DNA of 64,000 nucleotides from an uncultured bacterium (GTDB taxonomy: Bacteria; UBA8481), in the NCBI GenBank assembly GCA_964548165.1, contig CAZJQD010000007.1, forward strand, positions 25,665 through 89,664, in the 5' to 3' direction. The notes under the pieces are model-generated. The model saw only the letters and a program-made list of their open reading frames with translations, did no database searches and was not told where the DNA came from. The position numbers and the translations under genes were made by a program. Shown here one piece after another: positions 56,956-63,340 of this stretch (its first letter is position 1; each line of letters starts with the position of its first letter).

Positions 56956-56988
56956 CCCATCACGGATGGGGGACCCATCGTGGATGGG
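56956..56988. repeat. second tandem pair of CCCATC(A/G)(C/T)GGATGGG palindromes (period 18 bp)
   Basis: CCCATCACGGATGGG at 56956-56970 and CCCATCGTGGATGGG at 56974-56988, immediately 5' of the GGAGGAG SD of the NCS1 gene. Confidence 0.7.
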
Positions 56989-57001
56989 GGGAGGAGATTT
57001 C

Positions 57002-58576
<1,575 letters not shown>

Positions 58577-58650: not shown

Positions 58651-58980
58651 ATGCTCGCCACGCTGAAAACCATCGTCCTCGCCGTGATGGCTACGATCGC
58701 CGTCACCGCCATCACCTGTTTCGCCCTCTTCGGGCTCGTCTACCTCGTCAGCCCCGCCCCCCGCCGCAAGATCCTCTGGCAGAAGTTCAAGGACGTGACG
58801 CACAAGATCGGCCTCTTCAACACCTGGGTGATCCTCTCCGTCTTCTACTGGACGGTTCTCCTCGTCTACGCCCTCTTTCTCATTCCGTTCATGGATCCCA
58901 TGCGCATCAAGAAACCCTACGGCTGGATCCAGCGCTCCACGCGCGACCTGACGCTCGAAGACGCGTCGAGGCAGTCCTAG
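58651..58980 (+). CDS. small 3-TM membrane protein (SxtJ-like companion of carbamoyltransferases)
   Basis: 109 aa, 2 nt upstream of the carbamoyltransferase gene. The assignment to the SxtJ-like family is from memory of typical gene context, not from a search. Confidence 0.45.
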   Translation: MLATLKTIVLAVMATIAVTAITCFALFGLVYLVSPAPRRKILWQKFKDVTHKIGLFNTWVILSVFYWTVLLVYALFLIPFMDPMRIKKPYGWIQRSTRDLTLEDASRQS

Positions 58981-58981
58981 C

Positions 58982-60697
58982 ATGGCGCGCATCCTCGGCA
59001 TCTCCTGCTTCTACCACGACGCCGCCGCCTGCCTCGTCGTCGACGGCGCCGTCATCGCCGCCGCCGACGAGGAACGCTTCTCCCGCAAGAAACACGACGC
59101 TGGTTTCCCCAAGCTCGCCATCGAGTTCTGCCTCAAGAAGGGCGGGCTCTCGATGCAGGACCTCGACGCCATCGTCTTCTACGAGAAGCCGTTCCGGAAG
59201 TTCCACCGCCTGCTGATGACCTCGCTGGCGACCTTCCCGAAGTCCTACAAGTTCTTCACCCGCTCCATGTCCACCTGGCTCGGCGAGAAGCTCTGGATGA
59301 AGTCCTACATCCACAACGAGACCGGGCTCCCCGCCGAGAAGATCCTCTTCATCGAGCATCACCTCTCGCACGCCGCGTCCGCCTACCTCCCCTCGCCCTA
59401 CCAGGAGGCGGCCATCCTCTCCGTCGACGGCGTCGGCGAGTGGACCACGACCGCCATGGGTCACGCGAAGACCGAGAACGGCCACACGACGATCAACCTC
59501 ACTGACGAGATCCAGTTCCCGCACTCCCTCGGCCTCCTCTACTCCGCCTTCACCGCCTGGCTCGGGTTCGAGGTCAACGAGGGCGAGTACAAGGTCATGG
59601 GCATGGCCCCCTACGGCCGCCCCGAGTTCCTCGACAAGATCCACAAGGTCGCCAAGCTCGACGACGACGGCCACCTCCAGCTCGACATGAGCTACTTCAG
59701 CCACCACTGGCACTTGGAGAAGACCTTCACGCAGAAGTTCGTCGATCTCTTCGGCGAGCCCCTCAAGCGCGCGGACGACGTCGCCCCCTACTCGCTCCAC
59801 GCCAACGTCGCCTCCTCCATCCAGAAGTTCACGGAGGAAGCCATCCTCCGGATGGCCCGGACCGCTCACAAGAAGACCGGCTGCAAGAAGCTCGTCATGG
59901 CCGGCGGCTGCGCGCTCAACTCCGTCGCCAACTACCGCATCCTCAAGGAGACCCCGTTCGAGGAGATCTTCATCCAGCCCGCGGCCGGCGACTCCGGCGG
60001 CGCGATGGGCGCCGCGCTCTACGCCGACCACGTCCTCTTCGGGAACCCCCGCGCCTTCCACCTCGAGCACGCCTACTGGGGCGAGGAATACTCCCAGGGC
60101 GACGTCGAAACCTTCCTCAAGACGACGGGCGCGAAGTGGGAGCGGATCGAGGACGACGCGAAGCTCTTTGGCATGATCACCGAGCGCCTGCAGAAGCAGC
60201 AGGTCATCGGCTGGATGCAGGGGCGATTCGAGTGGGGGCCGCGCGCCCTCGGCAACCGTTCCATCCTCGCCGATCCCCGGCACGCCGTGATGAAGGACAT
60301 CGTGAACCGGAAGATCAAGTTCCGCGAGCCGTTCCGGCCGTTCGCGCCCTCCATCCTCATGGACGCCACGCCCTCCTTCTTCGAGATGCAGGATCCGCTC
60401 CGGCACCAGCCCAATCGCTACATGCTCTACGTCGTCCCCATCACCAACGACAAGATCCCGGCCGTGAAGCACGAGGACGGCACCGGGCGCCTGCAGACCG
60501 TCGAGCGTCACACCAACCAGCGCTACTACGACATGATCAAGACCCACGGCGACGCCACGGGCGTCCCGGTCGTCCTGAACACCAGCTTCAACCTGAAGGG
60601 CGAGCCCATCGTCACGACCCCGGAGAACGCGTTCTCCACGTTCATGCGTTGCGAGATGGACATGCTGGTCATCCAAAACGCCGTGGTGTACAAATAA
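58982..60697 (+). CDS. NodU/CmcH-family carbamoyltransferase
   Basis: N-terminus MARILGISCFYHDAAACLVVDG and the NodU/CmcH architecture, with a C-terminal domain (EPFRPFAPSIL, NTSFNLKGEPIV). Confidence 0.9.
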   Translation: MARILGISCFYHDAAACLVVDGAVIAAADEERFSRKKHDAGFPKLAIEFCLKKGGLSMQDLDAIVFYEKPFRKFHRLLMTSLATFPKSYKFFTRSMSTWLGEKLWMKSYIHNETGLPAEKILFIEHHLSHAASAYLPSPYQEAAILSVDGVGEWTTTAMGHAKTENGHTTINLTDEIQFPHSLGLLYSAFTAWLGFEVNEGEYKVMGMAPYGRPEFLDKIHKVAKLDDDGHLQLDMSYFSHHWHLEKTFTQKFVDLFGEPLKRADDVAPYSLHANVASSIQKFTEEAILRMARTAHKKTGCKKLVMAGGCALNSVANYRILKETPFEEIFIQPAAGDSGGAMGAALYADHVLFGNPRAFHLEHAYWGEEYSQGDVETFLKTTGAKWERIEDDAKLFGMITERLQKQQVIGWMQGRFEWGPRALGNRSILADPRHAVMKDIVNRKIKFREPFRPFAPSILMDATPSFFEMQDPLRHQPNRYMLYVVPITNDKIPAVKHEDGTGRLQTVERHTNQRYYDMIKTHGDATGVPVVLNTSFNLKGEPIVTTPENAFSTFMRCEMDMLVIQNAVVYK

Positions 60698-60700
60698 TCC

Positions 60701-60868
60701 ATGTCACTCAAGATGAAGCTCGGCATCTTCGGGGAGTTCCTCCAGTTCCTCTGGAAGGAGAAGCTCTGGTGGATGATCCCGATGATCCTGGTGCTCCTCG
60801 TGTTCGGGCTCCTCATCGTCTTTGCCCAGTCCTCGCCCATCGCCCCGTTCATCTACACCCTCTTCTAG
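60701..60868 (+). CDS. DUF5989-like 55-aa membrane peptide (not in ORF track)
   Basis: ATG 60701 to TAG 60866-60868. MSLKMKLGIFGEFLQFLWKEKLWWMIPMILVLLVFGLLIVFAQSSPIAPFIYTLF. The C-terminal PFIYTLF and the position 3 nt after the carbamoyltransferase stop match the small ORFs that follow NodU/CmcH genes. Confidence 0.6.
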   Translation: MSLKMKLGIFGEFLQFLWKEKLWWMIPMILVLLVFGLLIVFAQSSPIAPFIYTLF

Positions 60869-60976: not shown

Positions 60977-61627
60977 ATGATCTTCGGACGAAAAAAGAAG
61001 CAGCAACCGGAAGACGTCCAGGCGCTCTTCACCCGCCACGTGGAGCTCGTCCGGCACGCTCTGGAACAGCTTCTCTGCGTCGTGGACGACTATCTCTCCG
61101 GGAGCACCGCGCTCCGCGACGACTCCTTCCGGATCCACGAGCTCGAGCACGAGGCGGACATCATCCGCAGGCGCATCCAGGAATCCATGTCAGCCGGCGC
61201 CTTCCTGCCCTTCTACCGCGAGGACTACATCACCCTGGCCGGCATGATCGACAAGATCGCCGGACGCGCCGTCGAGCTCTCCAAGTCGCTCGTTCTGGAA
61301 AAGCCCATCATCCCCGCGGACTGCGCCGCCGACTTCCGCCTCCTGGCCCAGAGCGTCCTGGAGACCTACATGCCGCTCGTCCTGGCCCTCGACGCCATCT
61401 TCCAGGACGCCGAGGGTGTCGACCCGTACGTGGAGCAAGTCTCGGAGGGGGAACAGGTCACGGACTCCATCGAGTGGAAGTTGACCAAGCGGATCTATGC
61501 CGCCGACATCCCGCGCATCGAGCAGGTCATCACCGCGCGGGCCATCATCCGGATATCGGCCATCGCGGACGCGATCGAGAACGCGGCCGACAAGGCGCGG
61601 GTCATCGTGACCAAGCAGATGCACTGA
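60977..61627 (+). CDS. DUF47-family (PhoU-like) protein
   Basis: 216 aa helical protein. The GAFLPFYREDYI...IDKIAGRAV core is typical of DUF47/YkaA proteins encoded with PiT transporters. Confidence 0.75.
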   Translation: MIFGRKKKQQPEDVQALFTRHVELVRHALEQLLCVVDDYLSGSTALRDDSFRIHELEHEADIIRRRIQESMSAGAFLPFYREDYITLAGMIDKIAGRAVELSKSLVLEKPIIPADCAADFRLLAQSVLETYMPLVLALDAIFQDAEGVDPYVEQVSEGEQVTDSIEWKLTKRIYAADIPRIEQVITARAIIRISAIADAIENAADKARVIVTKQMH

Positions 61628-61629
61628 TC

Positions 61630-62649
61630 TTGAGCGCGCTCCTCGCCCTGCTGACGCGGTGGCACCTCCTGGGCGGTCTCTACCTCGCCTGGGGCCTCGG
61701 CGCCAACGACTCCTCCAAGATCTTCGCGCCCGCCATCGCCACGAACTCCATTCGCTACCGCACGGCCGCGATCCTGGTTGCCGTCTTTGTCATCCTCGGC
61801 GCCGGCATCCAGGGCCATACGCTCTACGAGAACTACCGCTTCTCGGGCGGTTCGCCGGACGAGACGGCTGAGGCGCGCCTCCGCGACGCCGCCATCGCCA
61901 CGGCCTCGGCCGCCCTGGCCATCATGGTCTCGACGCTCCTCGCCATGCCCGTCTCCTCCTCCCAGGCCGCCGTCGGCGCCATGATCGGAGTGGCCGCCGC
62001 GCGCCTCGGACCCTCCGGGATAGATTTCGGCCAGATCGGCACGATGCTGGCCTGCTGGATTGCCACGCCTCCCGCGGCCGCCCTCCTGGCCATGCTCCTG
62101 TACTACCTCATGGCGCGCACCCCGATCCGGTGGTTCCGGTCCGTCCAGCGTCGCAATACCGCCCTCCAGCGCGGCCTCATCATCTTCGGGTGCTACGAGG
62201 CCTTCGCGCTGGGAGCCAACAACGTCGTCGTCACCACAGGCCCCTTCTACCTCGCCGGCTTCTTCGGTCCCGCCGGCCCTGATGCGCATTCCGCGCGCGT
62301 CATCGCCGCGCTCCTTGGAGGAACCTTCATCGCGATCGGGGCCTTTACCTACGGGCACAAGGTGATGGAGACGATGAGCCGGAAGATCACCGTGCTCGAT
62401 CCGCTCTCGGCCGGCGTCGTCGCGGCCGCCACGGCGCTCACCATGCAGGTCTTCACCTTCATGAAGGTTCCGGTCTCGATCACGCAGGCCGGCGTCGGGG
62501 CCCTCATCGGCGTCGGACTCACGAAGGGTTCCGGCGGTCTCCAGGTGGCCACGCTGAAGCGCATCGCGATCGCCTGGGTGACGTCGCCGCTCTCCGCGGC
62601 CGCCATCGCCTGGCTCATCAGCATCGTGGCGATCAGGTTCTGGGGATGA
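61630..62649 (+). CDS. inorganic phosphate transporter, PiT family
   Basis: TTG start 3 nt after the DUF47 stop. Degenerate PiT GANDxxN signature (GLGANDSSKIF). About 10 TM helices. The upstream part of track ORF 61474 overlaps the DUF47 gene and is unlikely to be translated. Confidence 0.7.
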   Translation: MSALLALLTRWHLLGGLYLAWGLGANDSSKIFAPAIATNSIRYRTAAILVAVFVILGAGIQGHTLYENYRFSGGSPDETAEARLRDAAIATASAALAIMVSTLLAMPVSSSQAAVGAMIGVAAARLGPSGIDFGQIGTMLACWIATPPAAALLAMLLYYLMARTPIRWFRSVQRRNTALQRGLIIFGCYEAFALGANNVVVTTGPFYLAGFFGPAGPDAHSARVIAALLGGTFIAIGAFTYGHKVMETMSRKITVLDPLSAGVVAAATALTMQVFTFMKVPVSITQAGVGALIGVGLTKGSGGLQVATLKRIAIAWVTSPLSAAAIAWLISIVAIRFWG

Positions 62650-62701
62650 GAGAATACATTGAGACCGCGGCTATCGCGGATAAGACGCAGGAGGCGTAGC
62701 C

Positions 62702-63340
62702 ATGTTCTTCGGCAAAAGTGAAATGAAGGTGCGCGATCGCATGCTCGAGCACGTGACGGCCGTGAAGTCCGCGCTCAGCCAGCTCCCCGTCGTCCTCGAC
62801 ACGTACTTCGACGCCCCCGAGAAGCTCGAAGACGCCACGTACGAAGTGCACCGGCTCGAGCACAAGGCCGACGACCTGCGCCGCGCCATCCAGCACGAGC
62901 TCGCGGGTGGCGCGTTCCTCCCCTTCTACCGCGAGGACTACATCGCGCTCGCGGACATGATCGACAAGGTCGCCAACCGCGCCGTCTCCCTCGCCAAGGC
63001 GATCTCGCTGGAGCGGCCGCAGTTCCCGGTCGATATCCGCCCGGGGCTCCGCGAGATCGCCGTCTGCACGGCCGAGAGCTTCGCCCACTTCGAGACCATC
63101 ATCCCCGCGCTCTTTGGGAACCAGGAGGACACGATGCAATTGACCGAGCTCGTGTCCGAAGGCGAGCAGAAGGCGGATTCGCTCGAGTGGAAGCTCCAGA
63201 AGGCCATCTTCGGCAATCCGGCCATCGACCGCGCCGAGCAGATCGTCCTGGCCGGCATCGTCCAGCGGCTATCGAGCATCCTCGACTCGATCGAGAACGC
63301 CGCCGACAAGGTGAGGCTCATCGTCGTCAAGAAGGCCTAG
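62702..63340 (+). CDS. DUF47-family (PhoU-like) protein, second paralogue
   Basis: Shares the GGAFLPFYREDYIALADMIDKVANRAV core and C-terminal SILDSIENAADKVRLIVVKKA with the first DUF47 gene. SD GGAGG before the ATG. Confidence 0.75.
   Translation: MFFGKSEMKVRDRMLEHVTAVKSALSQLPVVLDTYFDAPEKLEDATYEVHRLEHKADDLRRAIQHELAGGAFLPFYREDYIALADMIDKVANRAVSLAKAISLERPQFPVDIRPGLREIAVCTAESFAHFETIIPALFGNQEDTMQLTELVSEGEQKADSLEWKLQKAIFGNPAIDRAEQIVLAGIVQRLSSILDSIENAADKVRLIVVKKA

Follow-up and report, generated by a model that had tools for sequence, protein, structure and literature searches.

A predicted class III carbamoyltransferase gene between genes for SxtJ-like and DUF5989 small membrane proteins in an uncultured bacterium

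Results

Three closely spaced genes at the locus

The stretch of DNA analysed here, hereafter referred to as the window, comprises 64,000 nucleotides of contig CAZJQD010000007.1 from an uncultured bacterium of the lineage UBA8481 (assembly GCA_964548165.1), and it carries a gene for an O-carbamoyltransferase (CT) placed between two short open reading frames (ORFs) which encode small membrane proteins. A three-gene module composed of an SxtJ-like membrane protein, a NodU/CmcH-type carbamoyltransferase and a DUF5989-like peptide had been proposed at this position in an earlier note, and the three ORFs are indeed present on the same strand, the 55-amino-acid one with exactly the quoted sequence:

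58651..58980, plus strand: SxtJ-like small membrane protein, 109 amino acids
58982..60697, plus strand: class III O-carbamoyltransferase (CT), 571 amino acids; Pfam Carbam_trans_N and Carbam_trans_C
60701..60868, plus strand: DUF5989 micro-protein, 55 amino acids; Pfam PF19451

The small proteins closely flank the CT as described, with a correction to the distance, which had been given as 2-3 nucleotides (nt) and was measured as 1 nt between the SxtJ-like gene and the CT gene (TAG c ATG) and 3 nt between the CT and DUF5989 genes (TAA tcc ATG).

The window has a G+C content of 67%, and all three ORFs display a codon-position signature, with a G+C fraction of 0.92-0.96 at third positions (GC3; 0.92 in the SxtJ-like ORF) and of 0.27-0.39 at second positions (GC2). 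Divergence was compared with two related loci, L084 and L092, whose CT proteins share 79% identity with that of the window. The CT gene differs from them by ~0.16 at nonsynonymous and ~0.75 at synonymous sites, a ratio (dN/dS) of ~0.2, and the DUF5989 ORF by 0.10 and 0.54-0.82, respectively (dN/dS ~0.12-0.19). For the SxtJ-like ORF, the values are 0.36 and 0.91 in comparison to L092, and dN/dS with respect to its relatives is ~0.4-0.6. Taken together, the codon signature and these ratios indicate that all three ORFs are translated genes under purifying selection.

An antisense ORF of 589 amino acids (58907-60676, minus strand), covering nearly the whole CT gene, was rejected as a shadow of that gene, an artefact of high G+C and not a gene in its own right. 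Similar shadow ORFs recur antisense to the CT in related loci.

A complete carbamoyltransferase of a conserved subfamily

The CT matches both Pfam models of its family over their full length (Carbam_trans_N at residues 3-346, E-value 1.2e-82; Carbam_trans_C at residues 401-571, 8.5e-65) and combines, in a single chain, an N-terminal Kae1-like transfer domain with a C-terminal YrdC-like domain of the carbamoyl-AMP-forming type. Solved class III CTs align with it end to end, 7xb6 being the best match (9e-92), followed by NovN, GdmN and TobZ. In GdmN, iron is bound by H133, H137, D156 and D333, and H27 acts as the general base (PMC9633730). Residues H126, H130, D149 and D337 of the window CT align to the four ligands and H12 to the base, and all five positions are invariant in 24 relatives. 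Moreover, the motif GPRALGNRS occupies residues 419-427; the string "GPRALGRS" is quoted in a 2026 preprint as the putative catalytic site of SxtI. The Pfam domains, the full-length alignments to structures in the PDB and the catalytic and metal-binding residues bear out the assignment to the NodU/CmcH type made in the earlier note, and the protein is a complete class III CT of the TobZ/GdmN/NodU type, with all of its catalytic residues present. It is, as judged by model scores, related to NodU but not NodU itself: with the NCBIfam equivalog model for NodU (NF041651) it reaches 140.4 bits (E-value 8e-41), the cut-off being 1000.

In GdmN and TobZ, carbamoyl phosphate is adenylated in the YrdC-like domain, after which a hydroxyl receives the carbamoyl group in the Kae1-like domain (PMC9633730). 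By homology to these enzymes, the window CT would convert carbamoyl phosphate and ATP to carbamoyl-AMP and hand the group on to an acceptor hydroxyl. No hydrophobic segment was found in the CT, which is predicted to be soluble.

Candidatus Hydrogenedentota assemblies supply the closest CTs (77-88% identical), and the window therefore probably belongs to this phylum. The subfamily as a whole (E<1e-30) counts at least 8000 members and extends over more than a dozen phyla, among them the Patescibacteria, whose genomes are small; identity across phyla is 49-62%, and mean column identity is 71%. Residues 66-110 are conserved in the subfamily, are rich in Lys, Arg, Trp and Phe, and align weakly to the solved CTs. 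They fall in an N-terminal stretch which includes helix 1 of the GdmN acceptor pocket (E85-E98; PMC9633730), a placement which applies to the stretch as a whole. Since the subfamily is unusually conserved, residues 66-110 included, its conservation argues for one common acceptor across phyla.

The two small membrane proteins

The 55-amino-acid protein was confirmed directly as a member of DUF5989 by its match to the Pfam hidden Markov model PF19451 (E-value 1.4e-20; 73.5 bits versus a cut-off of 27; model positions 2-49 of 49). In contrast to the CT, a hydrophobic segment was detected in it. The AlphaFold2 (AF2) model contains helices at residues 3-19, 25-44 and 47-54, with a predicted local distance difference test score (pLDDT) of 82. 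The predicted layout consists of an amphipathic helix (3-19), a break at the conserved motif K-x-W-W-x-x-P, a transmembrane helix (25-44) and a short C-terminal helix. In the family alignment, Y52 is conserved in 100% of the sequences and W24 and P27 in 99% each (window numbering). The C-terminal end APFIYTLF is near-invariant, the proteins terminating in ...FIYTLF.

At least 7996 DUF5989 proteins are found in the database. The gene had been described as unannotated and likely to be missed by most annotators, neither of which held: NCBI and Logan gene calls already include its exact product, and relatives have been called by the JGI, NCBI and ENA pipelines, with the NCBI name "DUF5989 family protein". 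A literature search for DUF5989 returned no paper mentioning it. Several DUF5989 proteins (P0287, P0303, P0334 and others) are named "drug/metabolite transporter superfamily protein YnfA" by JGI, and one is named "NAD/NADP transhydrogenase beta subunit". The window protein matches the YnfA model with an E-value of 0.028 only, and both names look spurious, as if arising from transmembrane-helix similarity.

The 109-amino-acid protein had no direct match in Pfam or NCBIfam even at E<=10, and did not reach the gathering score of the SxtJ model (PF19588). A word-indexed homology search yielded three relatives only, and an exhaustive search was therefore carried out against 1.84 billion representatives, using a profile built from the window protein and two relatives. 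It recovered 236 proteins at E<=1e-3, most of them 73-80 amino acids long and matching query residues 40-109. Among the 150 best hits, 68 match PF19588 (E<=0.01, best 1.2e-15), no other family being common to more than one of them, and precomputed SxtJ hits are present in the close relatives L001, L085 and L090. Within PF19588, the match begins at approximately position 37-58 of 99 and takes in the C-terminal part of the model. By way of these intermediates, the window protein is identified transitively as a divergent member of the SxtJ superfamily; it corresponds to the C-terminal part of the SxtJ model and has an additional transmembrane helix at its N-terminus. It has lost R59, P72 and R78, which are consensus residues of the family, and this is why the Pfam model misses it.

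Hydrophobic segments of the SxtJ-like protein span residues ~8-26 and ~53-71, and its AF2 model has helices at 2-33, 36-81 and 91-108 (mean pLDDT 72). The core of the family is a hydrophobic helix flanked by basic amphipathic stretches, with the conserved tail L-E-x-A-R-R-Q-[GF]. The SxtJ-like membrane protein of the earlier note is thus upheld by remote homology, hydrophobic segments and the position next to the CT, and not by a direct match to the SxtJ model.

SxtJ-like C-terminal domains also occur in longer proteins. In P0205 (266 amino acids) the domain is fused to a HAD phosphatase of the Hydrolase_like/PNK3P type, while L087:4231-5001 and P0131, both of 256 amino acids, join it to a 185-amino-acid region with no Pfam match.

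Conservation of the gene order across phyla

Relatives of the locus were collected by a pattern scan of one genome per species, which gave at least 598 confirmed relatives. The best 80 loci, with CTs 49-59% identical to that of the window, were kept as the sample from which the comparative results derive, and genes in them were called by ORF-based heuristics. These loci belong to Chloroflexota, Acidobacteriota, Omnitrophota, Methylomirabilota, Binatia, Nitrospirota, Planctomycetota, Verrucomicrobiota, Chlamydiota, Patescibacteria, Lindowbacteria, Fermentibacteria and others.

A complete CT ORF is present in 78 genome loci, and an iterated search over ORFs found a DUF5989 gene beside it in 74 of them, the two genes sharing a strand with a single exception. 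An SxtJ-like ORF was found directly upstream of the CT in 75 of 80 loci. In 44 of 76 cases, the distance from the end of the SxtJ-like gene to the earliest potential start codon of the CT is between -4 and +6 nt, a spacing pattern expected for translational coupling. The SxtJ-like (J), CT (C) and DUF5989 (K) genes are contiguous in 65 of 81 loci, the main orders being J-C-K, as in the window, and K-J-C. In the reverse test, which started from DUF5989 on long contigs, a CT was adjacent in three out of three. Beyond J, C and K, all-against-all clustering of ORFs revealed no gene common to most loci.

The neighbourhood count agrees with the statement that the trio travels together in many genomes. 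Small ORFs without a family and an unconserved gene order, which would speak against a module, are clearly not what was found: DUF5989 is matched directly, SxtJ transitively, and the order is kept. The two small membrane proteins are near-obligate partners of one CT subfamily in more than a dozen phyla.

Some loci contain further small genes. In the Hydrogenedentota relative L001, an extra gene for a soluble-looking protein of 123 amino acids, to which no family was assigned, lies between the CT and DUF5989 genes (L001:7817-8188). In 22 Chloroflexota loci (e.g. L026:8050-8448), DUF5989 is followed by a membrane protein of 100-135 amino acids with no Pfam family, most copies of which end in GWTE(E/Q)DA(K/R)(T/S)SGL. 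On account of its C-terminal motif it was considered as a second SxtJ-type protein, and was rejected, hhalign giving a probability of 0.5-5%.

An SGNH/AlgX-like fourth partner

Several loci have, within the module, a gene for a protein of ~400 amino acids, in most cases with a match to GDSL or AlgX models. When the 149 nearest flanking genes were compared with Pfam, Lipase_GDSL_2 (21) and ALGX (13) stood out, the next family being found three times. An iterated search seeded with the L003 protein defined an SGNH-like family, whose full-length hits (at least 250 amino acids) have E-values of 1e-27 to 1e-181 and are mostly 350-560 amino acids long. The family is present in 53 loci, lies within 1.5 kb of the CT in 49 of 82 and within the gene block in 48 of 81, and is contiguous with J, C and K in 39 of 81, nearly always on the same strand. 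The position of the SGNH-like gene (L) is shuffled, with the orders L-J-C-K, K-J-C-L, L-K-J-C, C-L-K and J-C-L-K. One N-terminal hydrophobic segment was detected in 45 of 57 proteins, and the GDS, ND and H catalytic positions are conserved. In about half of the genomes, the module is thus a four-gene unit which includes an SGNH/SxtL-like protein. The AlgX-type domain and the single N-terminal transmembrane segment suggest that this partner faces outward, as is presumed here. No SGNH homologue was found among the ORFs of the whole 64-kb window, which has the three-gene form.

The NCS1 permease and other neighbours

The trio had been described as sitting beside an NCS1 nucleobase transporter, and this adjacency was confirmed:

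56966..58576, plus strand: NCS1 permease (Pfam 8e-117)

The permease gene ends 74 nt upstream of the trio on the same strand. A scan for promoters and terminators between the two found nothing, and an Rfam scan of the window returned no element and no riboswitch. NCS1 is also directly upstream of the trio in L001/L002, L084 and L092. An upstream aminotransferase gene is common to all loci with an adjacent NCS1 gene; downstream, PhoU_div gene(s) recur in L084 and L092, and PHO4 in L084. The adjacency looks like synteny by descent, and is weak evidence of a functional link because it is shared only by close relatives which have other flanking genes in common. No recurrent transporter family was observed among the nearest flanking genes in other phyla, and NCS1 is absent from those loci. 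L087, a single case, has a Xan_ur_permease gene directly upstream, with NCS1 and CN_hydrolase genes nearby on the other strand. Two nucleobase-type transporter families, NCS1 and Xan_ur_permease, therefore adjoin the same module within one phylum.

Directly downstream of the trio, the window carries a PhoU_div (DUF47) - PHO4 phosphate transporter - PhoU_div triplet (60977-63340, plus strand). The full triplet is found in L084, and its first PhoU_div gene in L092, where the contig ends. The listed PHO4 ORF (61474-62649, 391 amino acids) probably starts later, its L084 orthologue being 335 amino acids long.

Genes for glycosyltransferases, flippases or nucleotide-sugar enzymes are neighbours of the module in L003, L090, L091, L093 and L094. 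L003 and L093 have the order GT4-CT-SGNH-DUF5989 beside giant beta-helix proteins, L090 has GDSL, AT3 acyltransferase, methyltransferase and GT2 genes, L091 nucleotide-sugar epimerases and dehydratases, UDP-glucose dehydrogenase and LptD, and L094 glycosyltransferases; no transporter was found among the neighbours of L085. In L072, from a Curtissbacteria metagenome-assembled genome, a single ORF of 1401 amino acids (L072:3474-7679) fuses both CT domains to a YfhO-type GT-C glycosyltransferase, in a locus which has no DUF5989. This fusion is a possible Rosetta-stone hint at a lipid-linked sugar as the acceptor. Beyond Hydrogenedentota, those neighbourhoods which are informative point towards envelope glycans.

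The MBOAT family is the classical membrane component of polysaccharide O-acetylation. In L049 (L049:7860-10371), an MBOAT acyltransferase gene and an unassigned gene for a 379-amino-acid protein lie between the CT and DUF5989 genes.

Discussion

Relation to known systems

The three families present at the locus are already known, each having a Pfam entry, and so is the association of SxtI, SxtJ and SxtK in the saxitoxin literature. Like the window trio, SxtI, SxtJ and SxtK comprise a class III CT and the products of two short ORFs, one of the SxtJ family and the other of 54-55 amino acids (sxtK has 165 nt). Kellmann and colleagues are said to have noted in 2008 that homologues of sxtJ and sxtK stand next to carbamoyltransferase genes. 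DUF5989 is the probable counterpart of SxtK, by size (54 amino acids) and position only; the name SxtK is absent among the best 120 of at least 7996 DUF5989 hits.

In the saxitoxin papers, sxtI, sxtJ, sxtK and sxtL (a GDSL-lipase) appear one after the other, and a shared phylogenetic origin is attributed to the four. The GDSL/SGNH gene often adjacent to the trio in other phyla thus has its likeness in sxtL, which comes right after sxtK, and given this consecutive order the sxt cluster appears to contain the whole four-gene module. SxtI is proposed to carbamoylate a soluble small molecule in the saxitoxin pathway. SxtI, SxtJ and SxtK are stated to act "in conjunction", and a 2026 preprint still lists SxtJ and SxtK as unknown, the label they have had since the cluster was described, in line with the remark in the earlier note that the role of the small proteins was not known. 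The window differs from the sxt cluster in having neither a saxitoxin pathway nor an SxtL-like gene. Its SxtJ-like protein is shorter than SxtJ (109 versus 134 amino acids), is not detected by PF19588 and does not have R59, P72 and R78.

The solved enzymes TobZ, GdmN, NovN and 7xb6 share with the window CT the two-domain architecture, the Fe-binding His-His-Asp-Asp site and the catalytic His. They are soluble enzymes of antibiotic pathways, none with a reported membrane partner. With E-values of 1e-74 to 1e-91, their identity to the window CT is clearly lower than that within the subfamily, and the stretch 66-110 is not conserved in them. Furthermore, the window CT (571 amino acids) does not have the C-terminal dimerisation domain of GdmN (682 amino acids). 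The PDB code 7XB6 was found in none of the papers searched.

Other members of the same enzyme family, WapO (PA5005) and NodU/NolO, have glycan acceptors. NodU and NolO carbamoylate the sugars of Nod factors. WapO is the putative carbamoyltransferase for the core heptose of Pseudomonas lipopolysaccharide, and as such offers a precedent for a glycan substrate (PMC8005017).

A functional analogy, and nothing closer, exists with the O-acetylation systems formed by MBOAT or AT3 proteins and SGNH enzymes, which likewise have a cytoplasmic donor, membrane parts and a co-encoded extracytoplasmic SGNH/AlgX-like transferase. The donor differs, being carbamoyl-AMP and not acetyl-CoA, the membrane parts of the module are micro-proteins of one or two helices and not multi-pass proteins, and the window does not have an SGNH gene.

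Proposed carbamoylation at the membrane and its alternatives

From its sequence, the locus is a translationally coupled three-gene operon of the SxtJ/SxtI/SxtK type with an intact class III CT. The gene identity of the trio is nearly certain, and the tethering role of the small proteins and an envelope substrate are the uncertain steps. The CT is predicted to be soluble, the small proteins have hydrophobic segments and the AF2 helices agree, which argues for a membrane location conferred on the enzyme by its partners. In addition, the SGNH partner and the glycan-type neighbours make carbamoylation of a lipid-linked sugar or glycan the most economical reading. The overall picture, which we hold to be probable, if only by a little, is one in which the two small proteins tether the soluble CT to the inner membrane and the acceptor is an envelope glycan precursor. 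The micro-proteins would be non-catalytic subunits holding the CT at the cytoplasmic face, the parts involved being the basic amphipathic flanks of the SxtJ-like protein and the N-terminal amphipathic helix of DUF5989. As acceptor, a precursor bound to the membrane would be expected, and a sugar or glycan linked to polyprenyl phosphate and destined for the cell envelope is the most plausible candidate. Where present, the presumably outward-facing SGNH/AlgX-like enzyme may act on the same product outside the membrane; the window would represent the minimal, three-gene version of the module.

Several observations weigh against this picture. The window trio has no adjoining glycan-synthesis gene and no SGNH homologue within 64 kb, so that the envelope glycan is a notion borrowed from other lineages, and glycosyltransferase-type neighbours are only modestly enriched there. 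The proposal that SxtI carbamoylates a soluble small molecule implies that the module can serve non-glycan substrates. Finally, the conservation of the DUF5989 tail (APFIYTLF), read as extracytoplasmic, suggests more than passive anchoring.

An alternative gives the membrane proteins a more active role, in which the CT activates the carbamoyl group, the SxtJ-like protein and DUF5989 span the membrane, and the SGNH enzyme installs or edits the group on an already exported polymer, as a carbamoyl analogue of MBOAT/AT3-SGNH O-acetylation (AlgI/J/F/X, PatA/B, OatA). On either side of its transmembrane helix, DUF5989 carries near-invariant residues. The SGNH gene forms an uninterrupted group with the trio in 39 of 81 loci, in several orders and nearly always on the same strand; of 57 such proteins, 45 have the N-terminal hydrophobic segment, and the catalytic Ser, Asp and His are conserved. 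When no SxtJ-like gene is present (L003, L093), DUF5989 directly follows or overlaps the SGNH gene, and in L049 an MBOAT gene stands between the CT and DUF5989 genes. Nevertheless, the window and its close relatives have the trio without an SGNH gene, and such a relay cannot therefore be the obligatory mechanism. Moreover, a conduit is unlikely to be formed by proteins which cross the membrane once or twice, the CT has an intact Kae1-like acceptor site, like enzymes which transfer directly to their final substrate, and we know of no precedent; on balance, transfer across the membrane in this manner seems improbable. A bolder extension, to which we assign an equally small likelihood, regards the CT, SxtJ and DUF5989, with the SGNH protein, as one ancient cross-phylum machine carbamoylating a common envelope component, in which the micro-proteins would couple the CT to the SGNH transferase, the saxitoxin pathway would have borrowed sxtI-J-K-L wholesale and the window form would be a reduced one.

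The neighbouring permease raises a different possibility, namely that a small molecule resembling a nucleobase or ureide is imported and undergoes carbamoylation at the membrane, or that the module otherwise serves nitrogen or nucleobase salvage in this lineage. The permease gene lies 74 nt upstream on the same strand with no terminator-like site in between, the adjacency is repeated in L001/L002, L084 and L092, and L087 has Xan_ur_permease, NCS1 and CN_hydrolase genes. On the other hand, the flanking genes shared by such loci (aminotransferase, PhoU_div, PHO4) look like synteny by descent, relatives with 63-77% identical CTs have no permease (L085, L090, L091), no transporter family recurs near the loci of other phyla, and neither a riboswitch nor any other Rfam element was found, all of which leaves a nucleobase-related function distinctly improbable. 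Tailoring of a secondary metabolite, as by SxtI, TobZ, GdmN and NovN, with the small proteins as pathway-specific accessories, would accord with the nature of the closest solved and named relatives, which are secondary-metabolite enzymes, and with the first description of the module in the sxt cluster. It is, however, very unlikely, considering that no biosynthetic genes flank the window trio, that at least 8000 subfamily members at 49-62% identity are spread over more than a dozen phyla including Patescibacteria, and that the neighbourhoods outside the trio are not conserved.

Conclusions

The peculiarities of the window are minor, consisting of a divergent, N-terminally extended SxtJ-like protein and of the three-gene form with no SGNH partner, and the locus is one more example of a widespread module. 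The comparative result may be of greater interest than the window itself, as it describes a near-obligate partnership between a CT subfamily and two micro-proteins, a frequent SxtL-like fourth gene and envelope-glycan contexts. What has been an oddity of a toxin cluster would thereby become a testable hypothesis of a widespread and uncharacterised modification of the cell surface.

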